Source of the DNA: an uncultured Verrucomicrobia subdivision 3 bacterium
GTDB lineage: Bacteria > Verrucomicrobiota > Verrucomicrobiia > Limisphaerales > UBA11358
Assembly (NCBI GenBank): GCA_903861445.1
Contig: CAIOUK010000215.1
Location: 393 to 64,392, forward strand
DNA: 64,000 bases
Reading direction: 5' to 3'
The notes below the pieces were generated by a model that was not told the origin of the DNA, did no database searches, and saw only the letters and a list, made by a program, of their open reading frames with translations. Both the position numbers and the translations under genes were made by a program. How positions within the stretch are numbered: the stretch's first letter is position 1; each line of letters starts with the position of its first letter. This document shows, in pieces, positions 5,287 to 54,489 of the stretch.

Positions 5287-6663
5287 TTAAAATTGCGGGC
5301 TGCCACCGTTGCGGCCGCTGCCGCCAATACTCGACGTGCCTGAACTCGTGGTTGTGCCGGTGGCCGTGGTGTTGTTCTGCGCGCGCTGCATCAACGCGCT
5401 GTTCTGCGACGAACTGCTGCCGCTGCTGCGTGAGCCGCTGGTCTGGAACATATTTTGCAGCACCTGTGCCGCCTGCTGCGGGTCGCCGTTGTTCATGTGG
5501 AACACATAAACTTTCTGGTCGCGCGTCGAAGGCACGTCGAGATCGGTCATCATATCCGCGATCTGCTCCATCAATTCCTTTGGCGCGGTCACGATGACCG
5601 CCTGAATGCGCGCATCCGCCACCGCGTTCACCTGCGTCGCTTTTTTGACGCGGTCGCTGGAAGAACTGCCGCCTGACGTTCCGCCCGCCGCCCCGCTCAT
5701 CATCCGTGAAAAGAAACTGCTTCGCCCGCCGCCTTCGCCGCCGCGAAAGCTGATGGGCGACTGCGCGCCGCCGCCGGAACCACCGCCGCTCGGAAACACG
5801 CTTTCGATTTCCGCCGCCACGTCCGTCGGACTGGCGTGCTTGAGCCGGAACACGCGGATTTCCGTCTCCGCCTCCGCGCTGTCGTCAATCGCTTTGATGA
5901 TTTCCGTGAGGTGCCGGATGTTCGCCTGCGTGTCAGTGATGACCACCGAGTTGCCCGCCTCGTTCGCCACGACCGTCGCCTGCGGCGAGACAAACGACGT
6001 CAGATCCGAAACCAGTTGCCGCGCCTCGACAAAGCGGATGGGAATGATCTGCGTCACAATTTCCGCGTTGTTCGGAATATCTTCCGGATTGTTGCCGCTC
6101 TTCACCGGAATATTGCGCGTCTTTGCGTCGTTTTTGTCCACGATGGTCAGCGTGCGGCCGTTGCGGATGGCCGCGTAGCCATTTTTATTCAACACGGCGT
6201 TCAGCAGATTAACCGCTTCGTCGCGCGTCAGGTGTTTGCCGACAACGGACACAGAGCCGTTGACGCGCGTGTCTTGCACGATGACGAACCCCGCCGCGTC
6301 GCTCAAGTAATTCAACACCATTTCCAGCGGCGCATTGCGAAAGTTCAAATCCAAATCATTGCCGTTCGTGCCCGTTGCCTGTGCGGGCGGAACAAAAGTT
6401 GCGCCGACGGCCGGCGCGACAGCGGATTTGCCGCTCGCCGGCAAAATCACCATCGGCCCGGCATTGGTTGAAGTGGGCACCGCTGCGGTTGGCGGAGTTT
6501 GATTACTGCCTGTTTCCGGAAGCGATCCGTCATCCGAGTCAGCAGCCTCGGCGCGCGGTGGCGGTGGCGGATTGTTATCCGTCGGTGGATTTTCTTGGGC
6601 GGTGGCGGCGACCAGCCAGCCCGCAACGCCCAATGCAAATAAGCTTAAGCTTGTGTTTTTCAT
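5287..6663 (-). CDS. secretin, N-terminal half (signal peptide, N0-like domain, two NolW/N1-N2-like repeats, first part of an N3 repeat)
   Basis: Signal peptide MKNTSLSLFALGVAGWLVAATAQ. N0-like LDLNFRNAPLEMVLNYLSDAAGFVIV...RTLTIV. Repeats IIPIRFVEARQLVSDL...VVITDTQANIRHLTEIIKAID and IRVFRLKHASPTDVAAEIESVF...AVIVTAPKELMEQIADMMTDLD. Then VYVFHMNNGDPQQAAQVLQNMF, an S/G/T-rich tail and TAA. Confidence 0.85.
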   Translation of the reverse strand: MKNTSLSLFALGVAGWLVAATAQENPPTDNNPPPPPRAEAADSDDGSLPETGSNQTPPTAAVPTSTNAGPMVILPASGKSAVAPAVGATFVPPAQATGTNGNDLDLNFRNAPLEMVLNYLSDAAGFVIVQDTRVNGSVSVVGKHLTRDEAVNLLNAVLNKNGYAAIRNGRTLTIVDKNDAKTRNIPVKSGNNPEDIPNNAEIVTQIIPIRFVEARQLVSDLTSFVSPQATVVANEAGNSVVITDTQANIRHLTEIIKAIDDSAEAETEIRVFRLKHASPTDVAAEIESVFPSGGGSGGGAQSPISFRGGEGGGRSSFFSRMMSGAAGGTSGGSSSSDRVKKATQVNAVADARIQAVIVTAPKELMEQIADMMTDLDVPSTRDQKVYVFHMNNGDPQQAAQVLQNMFQTSGSRSSGSSSSQNSALMQRAQNNTTATGTTTSSGTSSIGGSGRNGGSPQF

Positions 6664-42611: not shown

Positions 42612-43634
42612 ATGAAAATCCTTTTGCACACCCGTTTTTATCCCAATGTCGGCGGGATTGAGACCGTGGCGTGGCTGCTGGCTCACGAATGGCAGCGGCA
42701 GGGCGAGCAGGTGACCGTGGTTTCCGATGTCGTTTGCCCACCAGAACAACGCAGAGAATTGCCATTTCCCGTCCATTATCGTCCCTCCATTAGATGCTGG
42801 TTGCAATTGATGCGGTCGGCGGATGTGTTTGTCCACATGAACCTCAGCTTGAAAGCGCTGTGGCCGGTATTGTTGGTGCCTCGGCCCTTGGTGGCGGTGC
42901 ATCATGGCTTCTACGTCGTGGATCGGACCGGGCGGCAGGATTGGCGGGAGCGGCTTAAACTCAAACTGATGGCTCGGGCCGCCAACATCGCAGTCAGCGA
43001 AGCCGTGGCCCGGCGGCTGCCGGTGCCGTGCGCGGTCATTCCCAACCCGGTGGATGTTTCCCTGTTTCAAACTAGCCAGACAACCGTGCGCAACCGGGAT
43101 TTGGTTTTTGTGGGCCGGCTTGTCTCGGACAAAGGTGCTGCTTTACTGGTTCAGGCTTTGGATCGGTTGCGCCAAAACGGATTGACGCCGCAATTGACCA
43201 TCATCGGCGACGGGCCGGAGCGGGCGGTTTTAGAACAACAGGTGGCGGCGTTGAAATTATCCAGCCAGATTCATTTCACCGGTTCGCAGCCGCAAGCGCA
43301 GGTGGCGCAACGGCTGCGGCAACATCAAATTCTGGTGGTGCCCTCGCTTTGGGAGGAACCGTTTGGGGTGGTGGCTTTGGAAGGTGCGGCGTGCGGTTGC
43401 GTGGTGCTGGGTTCGGATGGCGGCGGTTTGCCGGAGGCGATTGGGCCAACGGGAACTACTTTCAAGCGCGGCGAGGTGGATGATTTGGTTTTGAAATTAT
43501 CCCACTTGCTTCGACATCCTGAAGTATGGTCGTCCTATCGCGCAGCGGCTCCGGCGCATTGGGAACGCCATCAACCGGCGTTGATTGCCCGGCGCTATCT
43601 GGAAGTGTTCGGAAAACAAATTCTGGAACGCTGA
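42612..43634 (+). CDS. glycosyltransferase family 4
   Basis: ATG 42612 (MKILLHTRFYPNVGGIETVAWLLAHEW). Motifs VFVGRLVSDKGAALL and EEPFGVVALEGAACGCVVLGSDGGGLPE. Confidence 0.88.
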   Translation: MKILLHTRFYPNVGGIETVAWLLAHEWQRQGEQVTVVSDVVCPPEQRRELPFPVHYRPSIRCWLQLMRSADVFVHMNLSLKALWPVLLVPRPLVAVHHGFYVVDRTGRQDWRERLKLKLMARAANIAVSEAVARRLPVPCAVIPNPVDVSLFQTSQTTVRNRDLVFVGRLVSDKGAALLVQALDRLRQNGLTPQLTIIGDGPERAVLEQQVAALKLSSQIHFTGSQPQAQVAQRLRQHQILVVPSLWEEPFGVVALEGAACGCVVLGSDGGGLPEAIGPTGTTFKRGEVDDLVLKLSHLLRHPEVWSSYRAAAPAHWERHQPALIARRYLEVFGKQILER

Positions 43635-49977: not shown

Positions 49978-51600
49978 TTGAATTCAGCTTTCAAATCTCA
50001 ATTCGCAGTTTTTCGACTCGCGCTTTGCGCTTTGCCGCTGGTCTGGCTGTGGTGCGTTCTGCTCAATGACCTCCGCGTGGAATGGACCGTCAATCCGCAA
50101 TACGCCTACGGCTGGGCCGTGCCGTTCTTGTGTATTTTTCTCCTGCTCCGAAAAATTTTCCGACCTACAGCTGGAATCACTCCGCCGGCAACGGCCAACT
50201 TCCGGCTATCGCCGATTCTCTGCCAAATCATTTTCGGGTTGCTGGCGTTGCTCTATTTGCCCGCTCGTCTGATTCAGGAAGCCAATCCCGGCTGGCGGCT
50301 CGTGAGCTGGGCGCTGGCCATTTCAGTCATCGGCATCACTCTTTGCGTTCTGCGCTCGGCGCTTGGCGCTTCGCGCCTTCAGGTTTCAGGTTTCAGGTTT
50401 CAGGTTTCGGACTTTGCTTTCCCACTGTTTTTTTTCCTCGTGGCCGTGCCATGGCCGACGCTGATTGAAAATCCGTTGATCCAAACCCTGACTCACTTTG
50501 ATGTCCGCGCGACGTGTGATTTGGCCGGCTGGCTCGGCATTCCAGCCATCCCGCACGCCAACGTCATCGAGGTGGCGACGGGCTTGGTGGGCATCGACGA
50601 AGCGTGCAGCGGCATCCGTTCATTCCAAGCCACGCTGATGATTTCACTGTTCCTCGGTGAGTATTATGCCTTGGGACTTGCCCGTCGGCTATTCTGCGTG
50701 GGGTGCGGATTTTTACTGGCCTTGCTGCTCAATCTCGTCCGATTGCTGGTGCTGGTCTGGGTGGCGGCGCAGCGAGGGATTCCAGCCACGACCCGGTGGC
50801 ACGACCCGACGGGGGTGTTCATTTTGCTCGGTTGCTTCTTTGTGTTATGGGGCATTGGAGTCTGGCTGGCGCCAGCAAAAGCCAAGTTAGAAGTCAGCAG
50901 TCAGCAGCCAGCAACTGGAAGTCAAAACTCAAAACCCTCCGCCTCCGAACTTTCCGTTTTCCGTTTTCCGTTTTCTGCGGTGGCCTTAACCGGCTGGCTG
51001 CTGTGCGTGCAAGTGGGCGTGGAAGGCTGGTATCGGTGGCATGAAACCCGGTTGCCCGCCGCGACGGTTTGGCAAGTGGCGTGGCCGACCAACAATCCCA
51101 CTTTCACCGAGCGCGACATTCCGGTGACTTCGCGGCAAATCCTTCGGTTTGATGACGGGCGCAATGCCGGCTGGCAGGAGGATAATCTAAATTGGCAGGT
51201 GATTTTTCTCCACTGGCAACCCGGCCGTGCGGCCGTGCGGCTGGCGCAGAACCACACGCCCGAAGTTTGTCTGGCGGCCGTCGGCCATCAGCTTACCGGG
51301 GGTAGAGAATTGCAATTCCTCGCGGTCAACGGTTTGAAAATGCCGTTCCGTTTTTATCAACTCACCGATACGCCGCAGCCAGTCTTCGTGGCCTATTGCT
51401 TATGGAACGACCGGGCGGGTTCCCGCAAGTTTGAAACTAGCTCCCTGACGGCCAGCAGTCGAATCGCCGCCGTGCGAGCGGGTCAACGCAACGCCGGCCA
51501 ACGCTCACTGGAAATCGCCCTTACGGGTCTAAGCGATCTTGCTGCGGCCCAAACCGCCGTGCAACAGTTGCTCGAAAAAATCATTGTGCCCGAACGGTGA
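49978..51600 (+). CDS. exosortase fused to a C-terminal EpsI-family domain
   Basis: TTG start (uncertain). Polytopic N-terminal ~300 aa with the exosortase catalytic region GIDEACSGIRSFQATLMISLFLGE and NLVRLLVLVW. A low-complexity linker, then TM SAVALTGWLLCVQVGV and an EpsI-like domain with HTPEVCLAAVGH. Confidence 0.85.
   Translation: MNSAFKSQFAVFRLALCALPLVWLWCVLLNDLRVEWTVNPQYAYGWAVPFLCIFLLLRKIFRPTAGITPPATANFRLSPILCQIIFGLLALLYLPARLIQEANPGWRLVSWALAISVIGITLCVLRSALGASRLQVSGFRFQVSDFAFPLFFFLVAVPWPTLIENPLIQTLTHFDVRATCDLAGWLGIPAIPHANVIEVATGLVGIDEACSGIRSFQATLMISLFLGEYYALGLARRLFCVGCGFLLALLLNLVRLLVLVWVAAQRGIPATTRWHDPTGVFILLGCFFVLWGIGVWLAPAKAKLEVSSQQPATGSQNSKPSASELSVFRFPFSAVALTGWLLCVQVGVEGWYRWHETRLPAATVWQVAWPTNNPTFTERDIPVTSRQILRFDDGRNAGWQEDNLNWQVIFLHWQPGRAAVRLAQNHTPEVCLAAVGHQLTGGRELQFLAVNGLKMPFRFYQLTDTPQPVFVAYCLWNDRAGSRKFETSSLTASSRIAAVRAGQRNAGQRSLEIALTGLSDLAAAQTAVQQLLEKIIVPER
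50378..50410. repeat. heptanucleotide tandem repeat ttcaggt x4 plus a partial unit inside the exosortase gene
   Basis: ttcaggtttcaggtttcaggtttcaggtttcgg. It encodes LQVSGFRFQVSD in a loop before FPLFFFLVAVPWPT. Confidence 0.95.
50893..50976. repeat. block of heptad units forming the exosortase-EpsI linker
   Basis: gtcagca gtcagca gccagca ... gtcaaaa ctcaaaa ... ttccgtt ttccgtt ttccgtt ttctg. It encodes SSQQPATGSQNSKPSASELSVFRFPFS. Confidence 0.85.
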
Positions 51601-51610
51601 ATTCCGCGTC

Positions 51611-51694
51611 GTGAAAATTCTTCTGCTCAACCAGGTTTTTAACCCCGATGCTGTCGCCACCGCGCAACATTTGAGCGATCTAGCGCCGGTGTGA
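51611..51694 (+). pseudogene. 27-codon remnant of a glycosyltransferase 5' end (homologous to the start of the GT4 gene at 52760)
   Basis: GTG 51611 encodes VKILLLNQVFNPDAVATAQHLSDLAPV then a stop. Compare MKILLLNQVFFPDVVSTAQHLSDLATALA at 52760. By my hand count 57 of 72 nt are identical, with most differences at third codon positions. Confidence 0.75.
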
Positions 51695-51755
51695 GTTGGC
51701 TACCTGATAGGTATTTTTTATTAAAACAAATCAAAGATTAGATCGTTTATTATGG

Positions 51756-52763
51756 GTGGATTGCTGCAAGGGTATCTGCATCGTGCTGGTGGTTTTTGGG
51801 TATGTGACAGGCGGCTTGGAGGCGGCAAAGGCTCTCTCCGCCGATTCCATATTTCTGACGTTGCGAACATGGGTTTATCTGTTTCATATGCCGGCCTTTT
51901 TCCTCCTGTCGGGTTTGTTTGCCGGCAAAGCGGTTGGACGGCCATGGCGTGCACTTTTTCAAAACAAGACGAGAACACTGGTCTATCCTTACATCCTATG
52001 GACCGGGATTTATTTAGCCTCGCAAATTCTCTTGGTGCGTTATGTGAATAACCCGCCAAATATCGGCAGGGCGCTCCATTTGCTTTGGGAGCCTTATGGA
52101 TATGGCCTTTGGTTTCTGTATAGCCTCTTTCTGATTTCAATGATGTTCCATCTGTTATTGGTGGCAGGAGTGCGCAAGCAAATCCTGTTGCTGACGGCAG
52201 TCGCGTTCCATCTGGGGGCATGGTTTAATGCGTTTGCTTTTTGGCCCATTTTAAATACCGCGATGCTGAATCTCATTTTCTTTGCCGTAGGGTCTATTTA
52301 TGTGGAAAAAATCTCGGCCAGCTTGCCAAGCGTCAACAGAATGAAATTAATTGCAGCAGGAATGGTGTTACTTGGATTGATGACTATTATATTTGCCATG
52401 CCAAACTACGCGAAGTTGCCACTAGGTTTGACAACTGCGTTGCTGGGAATCGTTGGCATTATTGCTTTGTCTCATGGATTAATCGGTTTGGCAGTAGGTC
52501 GGTTCTTTTCTGTGCTGGGCTTTTACTCTCTGGAAATATATCTGGGACATCCCCTTTGTAGCACCGCAGCGCGGGCTGTTTGGAGCCGTATTGGCATCTC
52601 GTCGGAATTTTTAATGGTGTTGTTTATTGTCTCTGCAGGAGTATTTGTTTCCCTCGCGATAGCCTTGCTTTGCCAAAAGCTGCAATTCCCTTACCTATTC
52701 CGATGGCCGCAGTTTCACCTCAAGCCTAGCATTGAAAGGGAATCCGATCTTTGCACAAAATGA
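51756..52763 (+). CDS. membrane acyltransferase family 3 (no SGNH domain)
   Basis: GTG 51756 is the first canonical start after an in-frame TAG at 51708. Motif DCCKGICIVLVVFGYV...VYLFHMPAFFLLSGLF and ~10 TM segments. The stop overlaps ATG 52760 as ATGA. A+T-rich leader (ttttttattaaaacaaatcaaagattag). Confidence 0.8.
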   Translation: MDCCKGICIVLVVFGYVTGGLEAAKALSADSIFLTLRTWVYLFHMPAFFLLSGLFAGKAVGRPWRALFQNKTRTLVYPYILWTGIYLASQILLVRYVNNPPNIGRALHLLWEPYGYGLWFLYSLFLISMMFHLLLVAGVRKQILLLTAVAFHLGAWFNAFAFWPILNTAMLNLIFFAVGSIYVEKISASLPSVNRMKLIAAGMVLLGLMTIIFAMPNYAKLPLGLTTALLGIVGIIALSHGLIGLAVGRFFSVLGFYSLEIYLGHPLCSTAARAVWSRIGISSEFLMVLFIVSAGVFVSLAIALLCQKLQFPYLFRWPQFHLKPSIERESDLCTK

Positions 52764-53983
52764 AAATCCTCCTGCTCAACCAGGTCTTTTTTCCCGACGT
52801 TGTCTCCACAGCGCAGCATTTAAGCGATTTGGCAACAGCGCTGGCGGCGCGTGGCCATGAAGTGACGGTGGTCAGCAGCCGCAGGGGTTATGATCATCCC
52901 GATATGATCTATCCCGCGTGCGAAACCTGGCGCGGCATCAAAATTCGCCGCGTTTTTTCCACGCGCTTCGGCAAAGGCGCCAAGTGGCGGCGCGCGGCGG
53001 ACTTTGCCAGTTTTCTGATTTGCTGCTGCACCCGGCTCTTGTTCCTGCCGCGTCAAGACGTGGTGCTGGCGCTGACCACGCCGCCGCTCATTTCCTTCAT
53101 CGGGGCGTGGCGGGCAAAATTGTGGCGGGCGCGCTTTTGCTATTGGGTCATGGATTTCAATCCGGACGAGGCCATCGCCGCCGGCTGGCTGCGGGCGGAT
53201 TCGTTTGCGGCAAAATTTCTGGAACGGCTCTCGTGTTTCAGCCTGCGCCGGGCGGAAGGTATCATTGCGCTGGACCGCTTCATGCGCGACCGCATCGTGG
53301 CCAAGGGCATCGCGCCGGAAAAAGTCGCCGTCATTCCGCCGTGGTCACAGGATGATGAAGTTCGCTTTGATGCGGCGGGGCGGGAAAAGTTTCGCACTGC
53401 GCACGCCCTCGCAGGAAAATTCGTCGTAATGTATTCCGGCAATCACAGCCCGGTGCATCCGCTGGATACATTGATGCAGGCGGCAGAGCGGTTGCGCCAG
53501 GAAACGGACATCGTATTTTGTTTTGTTGGCGGTGGCAGCGAATTTGCGCGTGTAAGAAAATGGGCAGCCGCCACCGGCAATCCACAAGTGCTTTGCCTGC
53601 CATATCAGCCGCTGGATCAACTATCCGCCTCGCTCTCGGCGGCAGATGCGCATGTCGTAGTCATGGGCGACGCTATGCTTGGCTTGGTTCACCCCTGTAA
53701 AATCTACAATGTTCTTTCCGTTGGAGCCCCGGTGATTTATATCGGGCCGACAACCAGCCACGTCACGGAAATTCTGGAAGGCTTGCAGCCGCACCATCCG
53801 TGGATTGGCGTGCGGCACGGGGCAGCGGAGGATTTGGCTCGTCAAATTCGAGAAATGCGCACAGCTGGAGTGGCTCATGACCGCCGTCTGCCAGTTGCCG
53901 TGGCGGCGCGCTATTCGCAGGCCATGCTGTTGCCACAATTGTTGGCGGTGTTGGCCGGCAAAGGTAATGCGGCCGCAGACTGA
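52760..53983 (+). CDS. glycosyltransferase family 4
   Basis: MKILLLNQVFFPDVVSTAQHLSDLATALAARGHEVTVVSS (GT4 N-domain) and VMYSGNHSPVHPLDTLMQAA...FCFVGGGSEF. The ORF-track TTG at 52751 is also possible. Confidence 0.88.
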   Translation: MKILLLNQVFFPDVVSTAQHLSDLATALAARGHEVTVVSSRRGYDHPDMIYPACETWRGIKIRRVFSTRFGKGAKWRRAADFASFLICCCTRLLFLPRQDVVLALTTPPLISFIGAWRAKLWRARFCYWVMDFNPDEAIAAGWLRADSFAAKFLERLSCFSLRRAEGIIALDRFMRDRIVAKGIAPEKVAVIPPWSQDDEVRFDAAGREKFRTAHALAGKFVVMYSGNHSPVHPLDTLMQAAERLRQETDIVFCFVGGGSEFARVRKWAAATGNPQVLCLPYQPLDQLSASLSAADAHVVVMGDAMLGLVHPCKIYNVLSVGAPVIYIGPTTSHVTEILEGLQPHHPWIGVRHGAAEDLARQIREMRTAGVAHDRRLPVAVAARYSQAMLLPQLLAVLAGKGNAAAD

Positions 53984-54015
53984 CACTTTCCTGTAATCAT
54001 TTTCCAATTCCATTC

Positions 54016-54054
54016 ATCCCCGCCGGCTTCAGTTGGCGGGGATGTTTGCTTTTT
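54016..54054 (+). terminator. rho-independent terminator candidate closing the polysaccharide operon
   Basis: 9-bp stem atccccgcc / ggcggggat (54016-54024 and 54035-54043) with a 10-nt loop, followed by gtttgcttttt. Confidence 0.6.
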
Positions 54055-54489
54055 GGGAGCATAAGCCTCTGCGCTCGTTCCCCAATGGTTTCAATCATCC
54101 CACAAGGTTTTAGGTTTTTTTCGACTTCAGGAACTATTTGGGGCAGGGGAGGAACTATTTCCAACTCAACTCCAAAATATTAGAAAACTATTATTTTACT
54201 GGAGTTTTTACTAGTGGTGAAAGTTTTGAAACGCACTCGTGAGCACTGCAATTGATCAATGCCTTGTGATATGTTTTACTCTGAAGCGAGCTGGTCGCGG
54301 CTGTTTTTTTCTTGGGAAAACTGCACCGTATCAGGGGTAGTTGTTATGCAAAAAGGTATTGTATTAAGAGGTGTGATTATGGGAAAACCAGTCGACACCA
54401 GCGCAATCATATCATGATTGTCAAAATTGACCGGCTTGCTATGGCTGTTAACCGTTGTCGGGAATCATAATAATAAAACGAAACGAACC

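Follow-up and report, generated by a model that had tools for sequence, protein, structure and literature searches.

The DNA analysed here is a stretch of 64,000 nucleotides (nt), referred to as the window, from contig CAIOUK010000215.1 (assembly GCA_903861445.1) of an uncultured Verrucomicrobia subdivision 3 bacterium. The feature in question is part of a plus-strand exopolysaccharide operon that spans 20 kb or more, and it is located at the 3′ end. In order, this operon encodes WbqC/ATP-grasp, a DegT aminotransferase, several glycosyltransferases (GTs) of families GT2 and GT4, a Wzy_C-like protein, a hexapeptide transferase, DUF218 and an exosortase; they are followed by a 27-codon open reading frame (ORF), called the stump below, an AT3 acyltransferase gene and an intact GT4 gene. 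With an EpsH-family gene in a GT-rich exopolysaccharide operon, the locus has the composition by which exosortase (EpsH)/PEP-CTERM polysaccharide loci are recognized. An initial annotation of this DNA had taken the stump for a diverged duplicate of the start of the GT4 gene and the whole arrangement for a scar of homologous replacement or insertion that brought in an O-acylation gene together with a different GT allele. The features are listed in Table 1.

Table 1 Features at the 3′ end of the exopolysaccharide operon (positions of the window)
Feature	Position	Strand	Basis or remark
Exosortase (EpsH family), conserved left flank of the variable slot	49978-51600	+	Pfam PF09721 Exosortase_EpsH, 111.5 bits
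Spacer, 10 nt	51601-51610	+	From exosortase stop to GTG of the stump; matches native exosortase-GT spacing of relatives
GT4 5′ stump	51611-51694	+	GTG start, 27 codons, TGA stop; GT homology through codon 25 (51685)
Illegitimate junction zone	51686-51694	+	End of GT homology (CCG GTG TGA); orthologs read on A/T/V-A-L-A-E-R-G-H
Leader, 25 nt, A+T-rich (36% GC)	51695-51719	+	Precedes AT3 start position; unlike the upstream sequence in L032
AT3 acyltransferase (PF01757) frame	51720-52763	+	ATT 51720 at the position of the homolog's ATG; first canonical start GTG 51756
TAT (Tyr) in place of the His of R/K-X10-H, transmembrane helix 1 (TMH1)	51801-51803	+	AT3 homolog alignment
Intact GT4 gene (WcaI-like)	52760-53983	+	Pfam GT4 domains; first 25 codons (52760-52834) are the second repeat copy
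Terminator-like hairpin	54015-54054	+	13-bp stem, 9 GC pairs, T-run; 31 nt past the GT stop

The stump encodes VKILLLNQVFNPDAVATAQHLSDLAPV and runs, as initially annotated, over 27 codons from a GTG ten nt past the exosortase stop; the exosortase stop lies at 51598-51600 and the TGA of the stump at 51692-51694. An ungapped alignment with the sequence from 52760 onward (offset 1149) gave 57 identical nt of 72, exactly the number that had been counted by hand, and 62 of 81 across the whole ORF. Formal alignment of the two copies, which the initial annotation had called for, found the similarity significant (blastn E 5e-15 within the window), and a direct-repeat search delimited it as 73 nt at 81% identity (51612-51684 versus 52761-52833). 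The runner-up ungapped 72-mer match to the stump on either strand of the window reached only 36/72, and tblastn with the stump peptide gave E 2e-10. The differences fall mainly at third codon positions, as had been claimed, with mismatches over 26 codons distributed 5/2/11 across positions 1, 2 and 3 (chi-square p = 0.03), and 75 nt of alignment contain no indel despite 21% divergence. Homology to GT genes ends after codon 25-27, and with 27 codons before its stop the stump is a fragment that lacks the complete GT-B fold of two Rossmann domains and about 400 amino acids. A paralog elsewhere in the window was considered as the source of the stump and rejected, the only other match being 34 nt long (E 0.016, at 42613).

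Between the two copies lie the A+T-rich leader and the AT3 gene, the latter matched by the Pfam Acyl_transf_3 profile, as initially described. The leader and the following nt (51695-51755) gave no match to a sigma-70-like promoter, with counts near shuffle expectation. The whole region is identical over more than 9 kb in three assemblies (the window, L029 and L030) that come from different samples and follow different record-naming schemes, and because these three independent assemblies agree, the structure is not an assembly artefact.

The divergence between the two copies was compared with that of orthologs. Over codons 2-25 of the stump and the resident GT, the proportions of synonymous (pS) and non-synonymous (pN) sites that differ were 0.65 and 0.073, and the resulting pN/pS of 0.11, from 24 codons and so of low power, was indistinguishable from that of true orthologs compared across this stretch (0.11-0.14). 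If one branch had been decaying neutrally, non-synonymous changes would be expected to make up about 64% of the differences; the number observed was 4 of 15 (binomial P 0.003), which rejects such a model. A recent duplication in situ is unlikely because these values of pS and pN/pS resemble those of interspecies orthologs, and the two copies are better described, as far as their divergence tells, as ortholog-like alleles. This is consistent with the similarity of the stump to other GTs: 14 other lineages have GT 5′ ends that are 64-83% identical to it in nt, and its peptide matches the GT starts of 14 loci with tblastn E values of about 1e-9, 22 of 24 residues being identical to several homologs. 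Its nearest GT 5′ ends are those of L031 (83%) and L004 (82%), and the resident GT, at 79%, is hence not the closest.

Two residues of the stump, N11 and A14, are unseen at those positions among 110 homologs, which have Y in 108 cases at position 11 and V, L, I, S or M at position 14; such substitutions would be expected of slight decay after truncation. With both reverted, the stump is of the common '...YPDVVATAQHLSDLA' allele type, and the resident GT is of the 'VVST' type. The resident gene has a peculiarity at the same position, where its codon 11 (52790-52792) reads Phe, the sole Phe among the homologs. It has homologs up to 84% identical (the GT of L031 is 81% identical over the full length, with pS 0.48) and a G+C content at third codon positions (GC3) of 0.66, like that of the neighbouring genes, from the first codons on.

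We then considered what follows the exosortase in relatives, which are metagenome-assembled genomes (MAGs) of Verrucomicrobia subdivision 3/Limisphaerales; two of the contigs, P0003 and P0243/P0006, were compared as gene maps only. Relatives with the exosortase followed directly by the GT, which the initial annotation had suggested looking for, numbered five, with spacers of 9 nt (L005), 14 nt (P0243/P0006 contig), 24 nt (L002), 44 nt (L011) and 78 nt (L016). The start of the stump, 10 nt past the exosortase stop, is thus at the native start position of a GT, and GTs of the relatives often start with GTG or TTG. In other relatives the slot is occupied by a cytidylyltransferase-like gene (L003, L120-L123, P0003 contig), a PEP-CTERM-type protein (L004), GC-rich repeats (L010) or another GT (L009). 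The variety of occupants, from a GT alone through cytidylyltransferase, PEP-CTERM protein and repeats to the AT3 gene of the window, marks the slot as an apparent hot spot of accessory-gene turnover. No second copy of a GT 5′ end was found at the other exosortase loci examined. The locus L031 was at first taken for a plain exosortase-to-GT arrangement, an impression corrected by a 12-codon stump of a cytidylyltransferase 5′ end (MPKKKVFAGGCF) at 5945-6000, directly before the GT start, with 31 of 38 nt identical to L120. Another lineage has therefore acquired a 5′ stump at this site, independently of the window.

Some of the slot occupants deserve description in their own right. The 295-residue protein of L004 (9985-10869) has a C-terminus resembling a PEP-CTERM sorting signal (...PVPELAAWGAISAAGLFSICGIRIWRQQR) and is likely a substrate of the exosortase encoded beside it. 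The spacer of about 530 nt between exosortase and GT in L010 (4684-5217) is tandem-repeat filler of 72% GC with several copies of a peptide-like unit (...RRQGRDGVPRRPPATSARNPIPARPG...). Two of the loci, L003 and L005, come from MAGs labelled 'uncultured Bifidobacteriaceae'; the exosortase/GT locus is otherwise carried only by MAGs labelled Verrucomicrobia, and the two labels are probably wrong.

The AT3 gene and the GT behind it also occur together elsewhere. The closest AT3 homolog, in L032 (64% protein identity), is followed by an orthologous GT, and the nt identity to the window is 73% over 1460 nt. Synonymous divergence between the window and L032 is equal in the two genes (pS 0.62 for AT3 and 0.64 for the GT), which indicates that they diverged as a unit; the AT3-GT pair is a pre-existing linked module. 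Related arrangements are DUF218-AT3-GT in L033/L034 and GT followed by AT3 in L118, while in L117, L119 and L035 the AT3 gene is located elsewhere; no stump was found at any of these AT3 loci, L032 included. L032 was not a recent donor, as the GT of the window is closer to that of L031. The 38 nt 5′ of the L032 AT3 gene were considered as the 3′ end of an exosortase, which would give L032 a clean exosortase-AT3-GT order, and rejected, since the C-terminus they encode (...PELFWR and stop) is unlike the ...LLEKIIxPxx C-termini of 120 exosortases. Near positions 165-180 of L032, the AT3 gene (P0122) shifts frame in a T run, so that the N-terminus of the database protein is out of frame; either Logan misassembled this stretch, or a second AT3 copy is in decay. 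Small genes of a 23S_rRNA_IVP/bAvd-like family adjoin AT3 homologs in L035 (8995-9378) and L036 (3063-3446), and one lies directly 5′ of the exosortase in the P0243 contig (5630-6004 of the gene map).

The AT3 reading frame itself matches Acyl_transf_3 with 69.6 bits against a cutoff of 31, over profile positions 2-325 of 326, and its stop overlaps the GT start in ATGA at 52760-52763, as had been noted. The initial annotation had further held that the abrupt beginning at D-C-C-K-G leaves no space for the usual N-terminus, which was wrong. With a canonical start, the ORF begins V-D-C-C-K-G at GTG 51756. The open frame reaches back to 51711, however, and the 15 codons 5′ of this GTG encode the missing part (V-F-F-I-K-T-N-Q-R-L-D-R-L-L-W), including an Arg found in at least 90% of homologs. 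In a codon-by-codon alignment, the ATT at 51720 falls on the L032 ATG (MNLIQNNHRLSWVDCSKG...); to judge by this alignment, either an ATG was mutated to ATT here, or ATT would serve as a rare start. Since 5 of 106 homolog gene calls likewise start at M/V-D-x-x-K-G, initiation at GTG 51756 is also possible.

The R/K-X10-H motif of TMH1 reads K20-X10-Y31 in the window, whereas the His is present in 105 of the 106 homologs with a locatable motif. Both motif residues are essential in OafA, where activity falls to 0.07% of wild type in R14A and 0.33% in H25A (PMC7448272), and the motif has been called 'absolutely conserved' (PMC9833829). The other features of the family are kept, namely the FFxISG-type motif and RxxR described near TMH2-3 (PMC7448272), which are here an FFxxSG-type FFLLSG (in 'MPAFFLLSGLF') and RPWR (in 'GRPWR'), as well as the remaining invariant residues of the alignment. 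Compared with OafA/OafB and Oac, also AT3 proteins of PF01757, the window protein thus shares the full-length domain, both of these motifs and the basic residue of R/K-X10-H, and differs in having Tyr for the essential His and a non-canonical codon at the homologous start; it consists of AT3 alone and has no SGNH domain. Because of these two differences, the second being ATT in place of the ATG of the closest homolog, we infer that acyltransferase activity has been lost: the gene is probably inactive, poorly expressed or a very recent pseudogene. The designation as an O-acylation gene is therefore right as to descent, but the predicted inactivity through His-to-Tyr had gone unnoticed.

A comparison of composition between the AT3 region and its flanks had also been proposed. 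The contrast is real, with about 46% GC between the two copies versus 57-63% in the flanks and an AT3 GC3 of 0.51 versus 0.61-0.69 in the neighbouring genes. However, AT3 genes have lower GC3 than the adjacent GT in L032 (0.56 versus 0.74) and L033 (0.55 versus 0.64) as well, so the low value is in part characteristic of the family and does not demonstrate a recent import, which weakens GC and GC3 as evidence for a foreign AT3.

The locus contains a chimeric junction, with a non-homologous joint at 51686-51694 followed by the 25-nt leader. We consider it reasonably probable that the stump is a non-functional remnant of a displaced GT, termed GT(A), and that the locus arose when an exosortase-GT(A) end was joined to a pre-existing AT3-GT(B) module through at least one illegitimate joint. 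In the ancestral state, GT(A) would have lain directly 3′ of the exosortase, as a GT still does in relatives, and the present chimera would consist of the exosortase, the 10 nt and codons 1-25 or 1-27 of GT(A), joined to the leader, AT3 and GT(B). The simplest route would be uptake of AT3-GT(B) DNA from a related lineage. Homology within the well-conserved GT, or past it, would have anchored the right end, and the left end would have been sealed illegitimately within the resident GT. The GT would be a natural homology anchor because it is the best-conserved gene nearby, with about 80% nt identity between species compared to 64-75% for the exosortase. An equivalent route in two steps would be additive gain of AT3-GT(B) 3′ of GT(A) and then deletion of the redundant GT(A) body, and by analogy the simple deletion stump in L031 suggests this second route. 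After truncation, the stump would have begun to decay through the two substitutions at otherwise conserved residues.

This reading retains one part of the initial annotation and modifies another. The interpretation as a scar of cassette exchange between two diverged GT 5′ alleles is supported by the pS of 0.65, the position of the GT in relatives and the linked AT3-GT module. A purely homologous replacement, on the other hand, would leave no stump, which is why at least one illegitimate joint, or deletion after additive gain, is needed. Similarly, two alleles are indeed juxtaposed, and the AT3 gene with its GT may be the part that was brought in, though the low GC3 of AT3, a family trait, is no proof of this; the mechanism and the direction of transfer are what we infer from sequence.

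Several observations weigh against this account. The divergence statistics have the low power of their 24 codons, and the compositional contrast of AT3 is, as described above, partly that of its family. When protein identity to 29 homologs was tracked along the resident GT in sliding segments, the nearest neighbour shifted within noise and no mosaic breakpoint was visible. The nearest relatives of the exosortase (L120, 73% protein identity; L121-L123, 68-69%) hold a cytidylyltransferase rather than a GT in the slot, so that the stump is the sole witness to the arrangement in the immediate ancestor. Neither a close-range donor nor an empty-site sister strain was found, the nearest exosortase, AT3 and GT being 73%, 64% and 84% identical, and with an exosortase and an AT3 only this close, a base-by-base reconstruction of the event is impossible. 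The matches listed for the AT3 alignment in metagenomes, nearly all of them distant AT3s of at most 33% identity, include no donor-like locus, and no insertion-free variant of the same strain was found; L029 and L030 represent this strain, with an identical GT and no differences in the region.

The same scar could have formed with the opposite polarity, AT3-GT(B) being native and the incoming DNA consisting of the 3′ part of the exosortase with the 5′ end of GT(A), anchored in or upstream of the exosortase and closed by an illegitimate joint just 5′ of AT3. The symmetric scar would fit both polarities, the low GC3 of AT3 reflects its family, AT3-GT(B) may be native in L032 too, and the co-divergence of AT3 and GT with the L032 pair means that they have long been linked; the GT also has the GC3 of its neighbours from the first codon. 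We nevertheless regard this direction as rather unlikely, since the genes for hexapeptide transferase, DUF218 and exosortase run collinearly with those of the closest relatives for 2.7 kb, where no break can be seen, and GC3 shows no discontinuity towards the end of the exosortase gene; in addition, exosortase followed by GT is common in the clade.

A direct repeat on both sides of an inserted gene, one copy of which has two substitutions at conserved residues, could also result from insertion of AT3 into the resident GT with a target duplication of about 80 nt and subsequent decay of the upstream copy. We consider this improbable. Synonymous divergence near saturation (pS 0.65) with pN/pS of 0.11, the 4 non-synonymous differences of 15 where a neutral branch predicts about 64% (P 0.003) and the absence of indels in 75 nt at 21% divergence all argue against a decaying duplicate, and L032 and L033 carry AT3 followed by GT without a stump. 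No inverted repeats flank 51695-52760, where the 81%-identical 73 nt of the GT 5′ end are the only flanking direct repeat, no transposase-like ORF lies within 48-56 kb, and mobile-element genes are absent around AT3. With no inverted repeats and no transposase or integrase found, insertion as a transposon, insertion sequence (IS) or integron cassette is likewise not supported.

It is more doubtful still that the stump has a function of its own, as a small gene or as a leader ORF that might, for instance, couple AT3 translation to that of the exosortase. Its ORF is intact, has a GTG at the native position and stops 25 nt short of the AT3 start position, and a second 5′ stump exists in the same slot of L031. 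Yet it was found only in this strain and not at the other AT3 or exosortase loci examined, and a search of the whole window against Rfam returned no match. The initial annotation had named membership in a functional small gene of relatives as the finding that would speak against its view, and none of the relatives' loci examined has such a gene. The substitutions at residues conserved in 110 GT homologs also argue against function, as does the fact that the stump comprises an incomplete first beta-alpha unit of the GT-B Rossmann domain, which is not expected to fold alone. Finally, a metagenome assembly chimera of two strains, conceivable for assemblies of an uncultured organism in which repeats can mislead assemblers, is hardly credible given three assemblies of different samples identical over more than 9 kb and a joint between stump and leader that has no shared sequence to cause a mis-join.

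The strong terminator-like hairpin behind the GT probably marks the end of the polysaccharide operon, and it is followed by an intergenic stretch of 40-45% GC and a DUF6288/HEAT-repeat gene at 54418. Within the exosortase, at about 50390-50450 (codons 140-155, approximately), there is a short internal tandem duplication of a peptide (...LQVSGFRFQVSDFAF...), where alignments to L023 and L021 break up.

Capsule, O-antigen and exopolysaccharide loci, such as pneumococcal cps and the enterobacterial O-antigen and K loci, are well known to carry gene remnants and pseudogene stubs where cassettes meet, and gain, loss and inactivation of accessory O-acyltransferases in capsule and O-antigen loci are familiar too. 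The window shares with them the conserved flanks, the variable slot, the remnant of a displaced gene, the compositional contrast and an accessory O-acyltransferase as the variable element. It differs in its host, an uncultured member of Verrucomicrobia subdivision 3/Limisphaerales, in the exosortase (PEP-CTERM) type of locus and in having no IS elements or H-repeats. A further difference from such remnants is that the stump is a diverged allele of the next intact gene, which provides an internal measure of the distance between the parental loci. Homology-facilitated illegitimate recombination, described in naturally transformable Acinetobacter and Streptococcus pneumoniae, combines one homologous anchor with one illegitimate joint, usually of 3-10 nt microhomology. 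Such an event, the putative mechanism in this case, would yield the architecture seen here, with a homologous end in the GT, an illegitimate other end and a truncated resident gene.

Serotype switching through inactivation of O-acetyltransferases is also known, for example in pneumococcal wcjE, wciG and wciZ variants, and the AT3 gene of the window resembles these in being an otherwise intact accessory acyltransferase with a single-residue or start-codon lesion. In contrast to the pneumococcal variants, a single allele is present in all three assemblies, and it is known here as a sequence. As AT3 is probably inactive, O-acylation of the polymer should not be assumed.

These comparisons identify the locus as an ordinary recombination scar, unusually clean but of a known kind, in an uncultured Verrucomicrobium with an exosortase-type locus. 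Less expected are the His-to-Tyr lesion and the recurrence of 5′ stumps in the same slot of two lineages. As two lineages carry such stumps independently, of a GT in the window and of a cytidylyltransferase gene in L031, one may speculate that the slot after the exosortase is a recurrent exchange site that preferentially keeps the first 12-27 codons of the displaced gene, the stumps acting as a re-usable 'landing pad' or leader and not being mere leftovers. We hold this to be a long shot; if it were true, the start region of the stump, translationally coupled to the exosortase, would drive expression of the gene behind it.

For the annotation of such genomes, the 27-codon ORF should be recorded as a pseudogene fragment, the AT3 start at the internal GTG needs a comment, and the AT3 gene should be flagged as probably inactive (His-to-Tyr in R/K-X10-H). 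The finding leaves the current understanding of how such loci evolve unchanged. Its value is that the stump would be an internal record of recombination between two diverged polysaccharide-locus ends in an uncultured soil or freshwater Verrucomicrobium.

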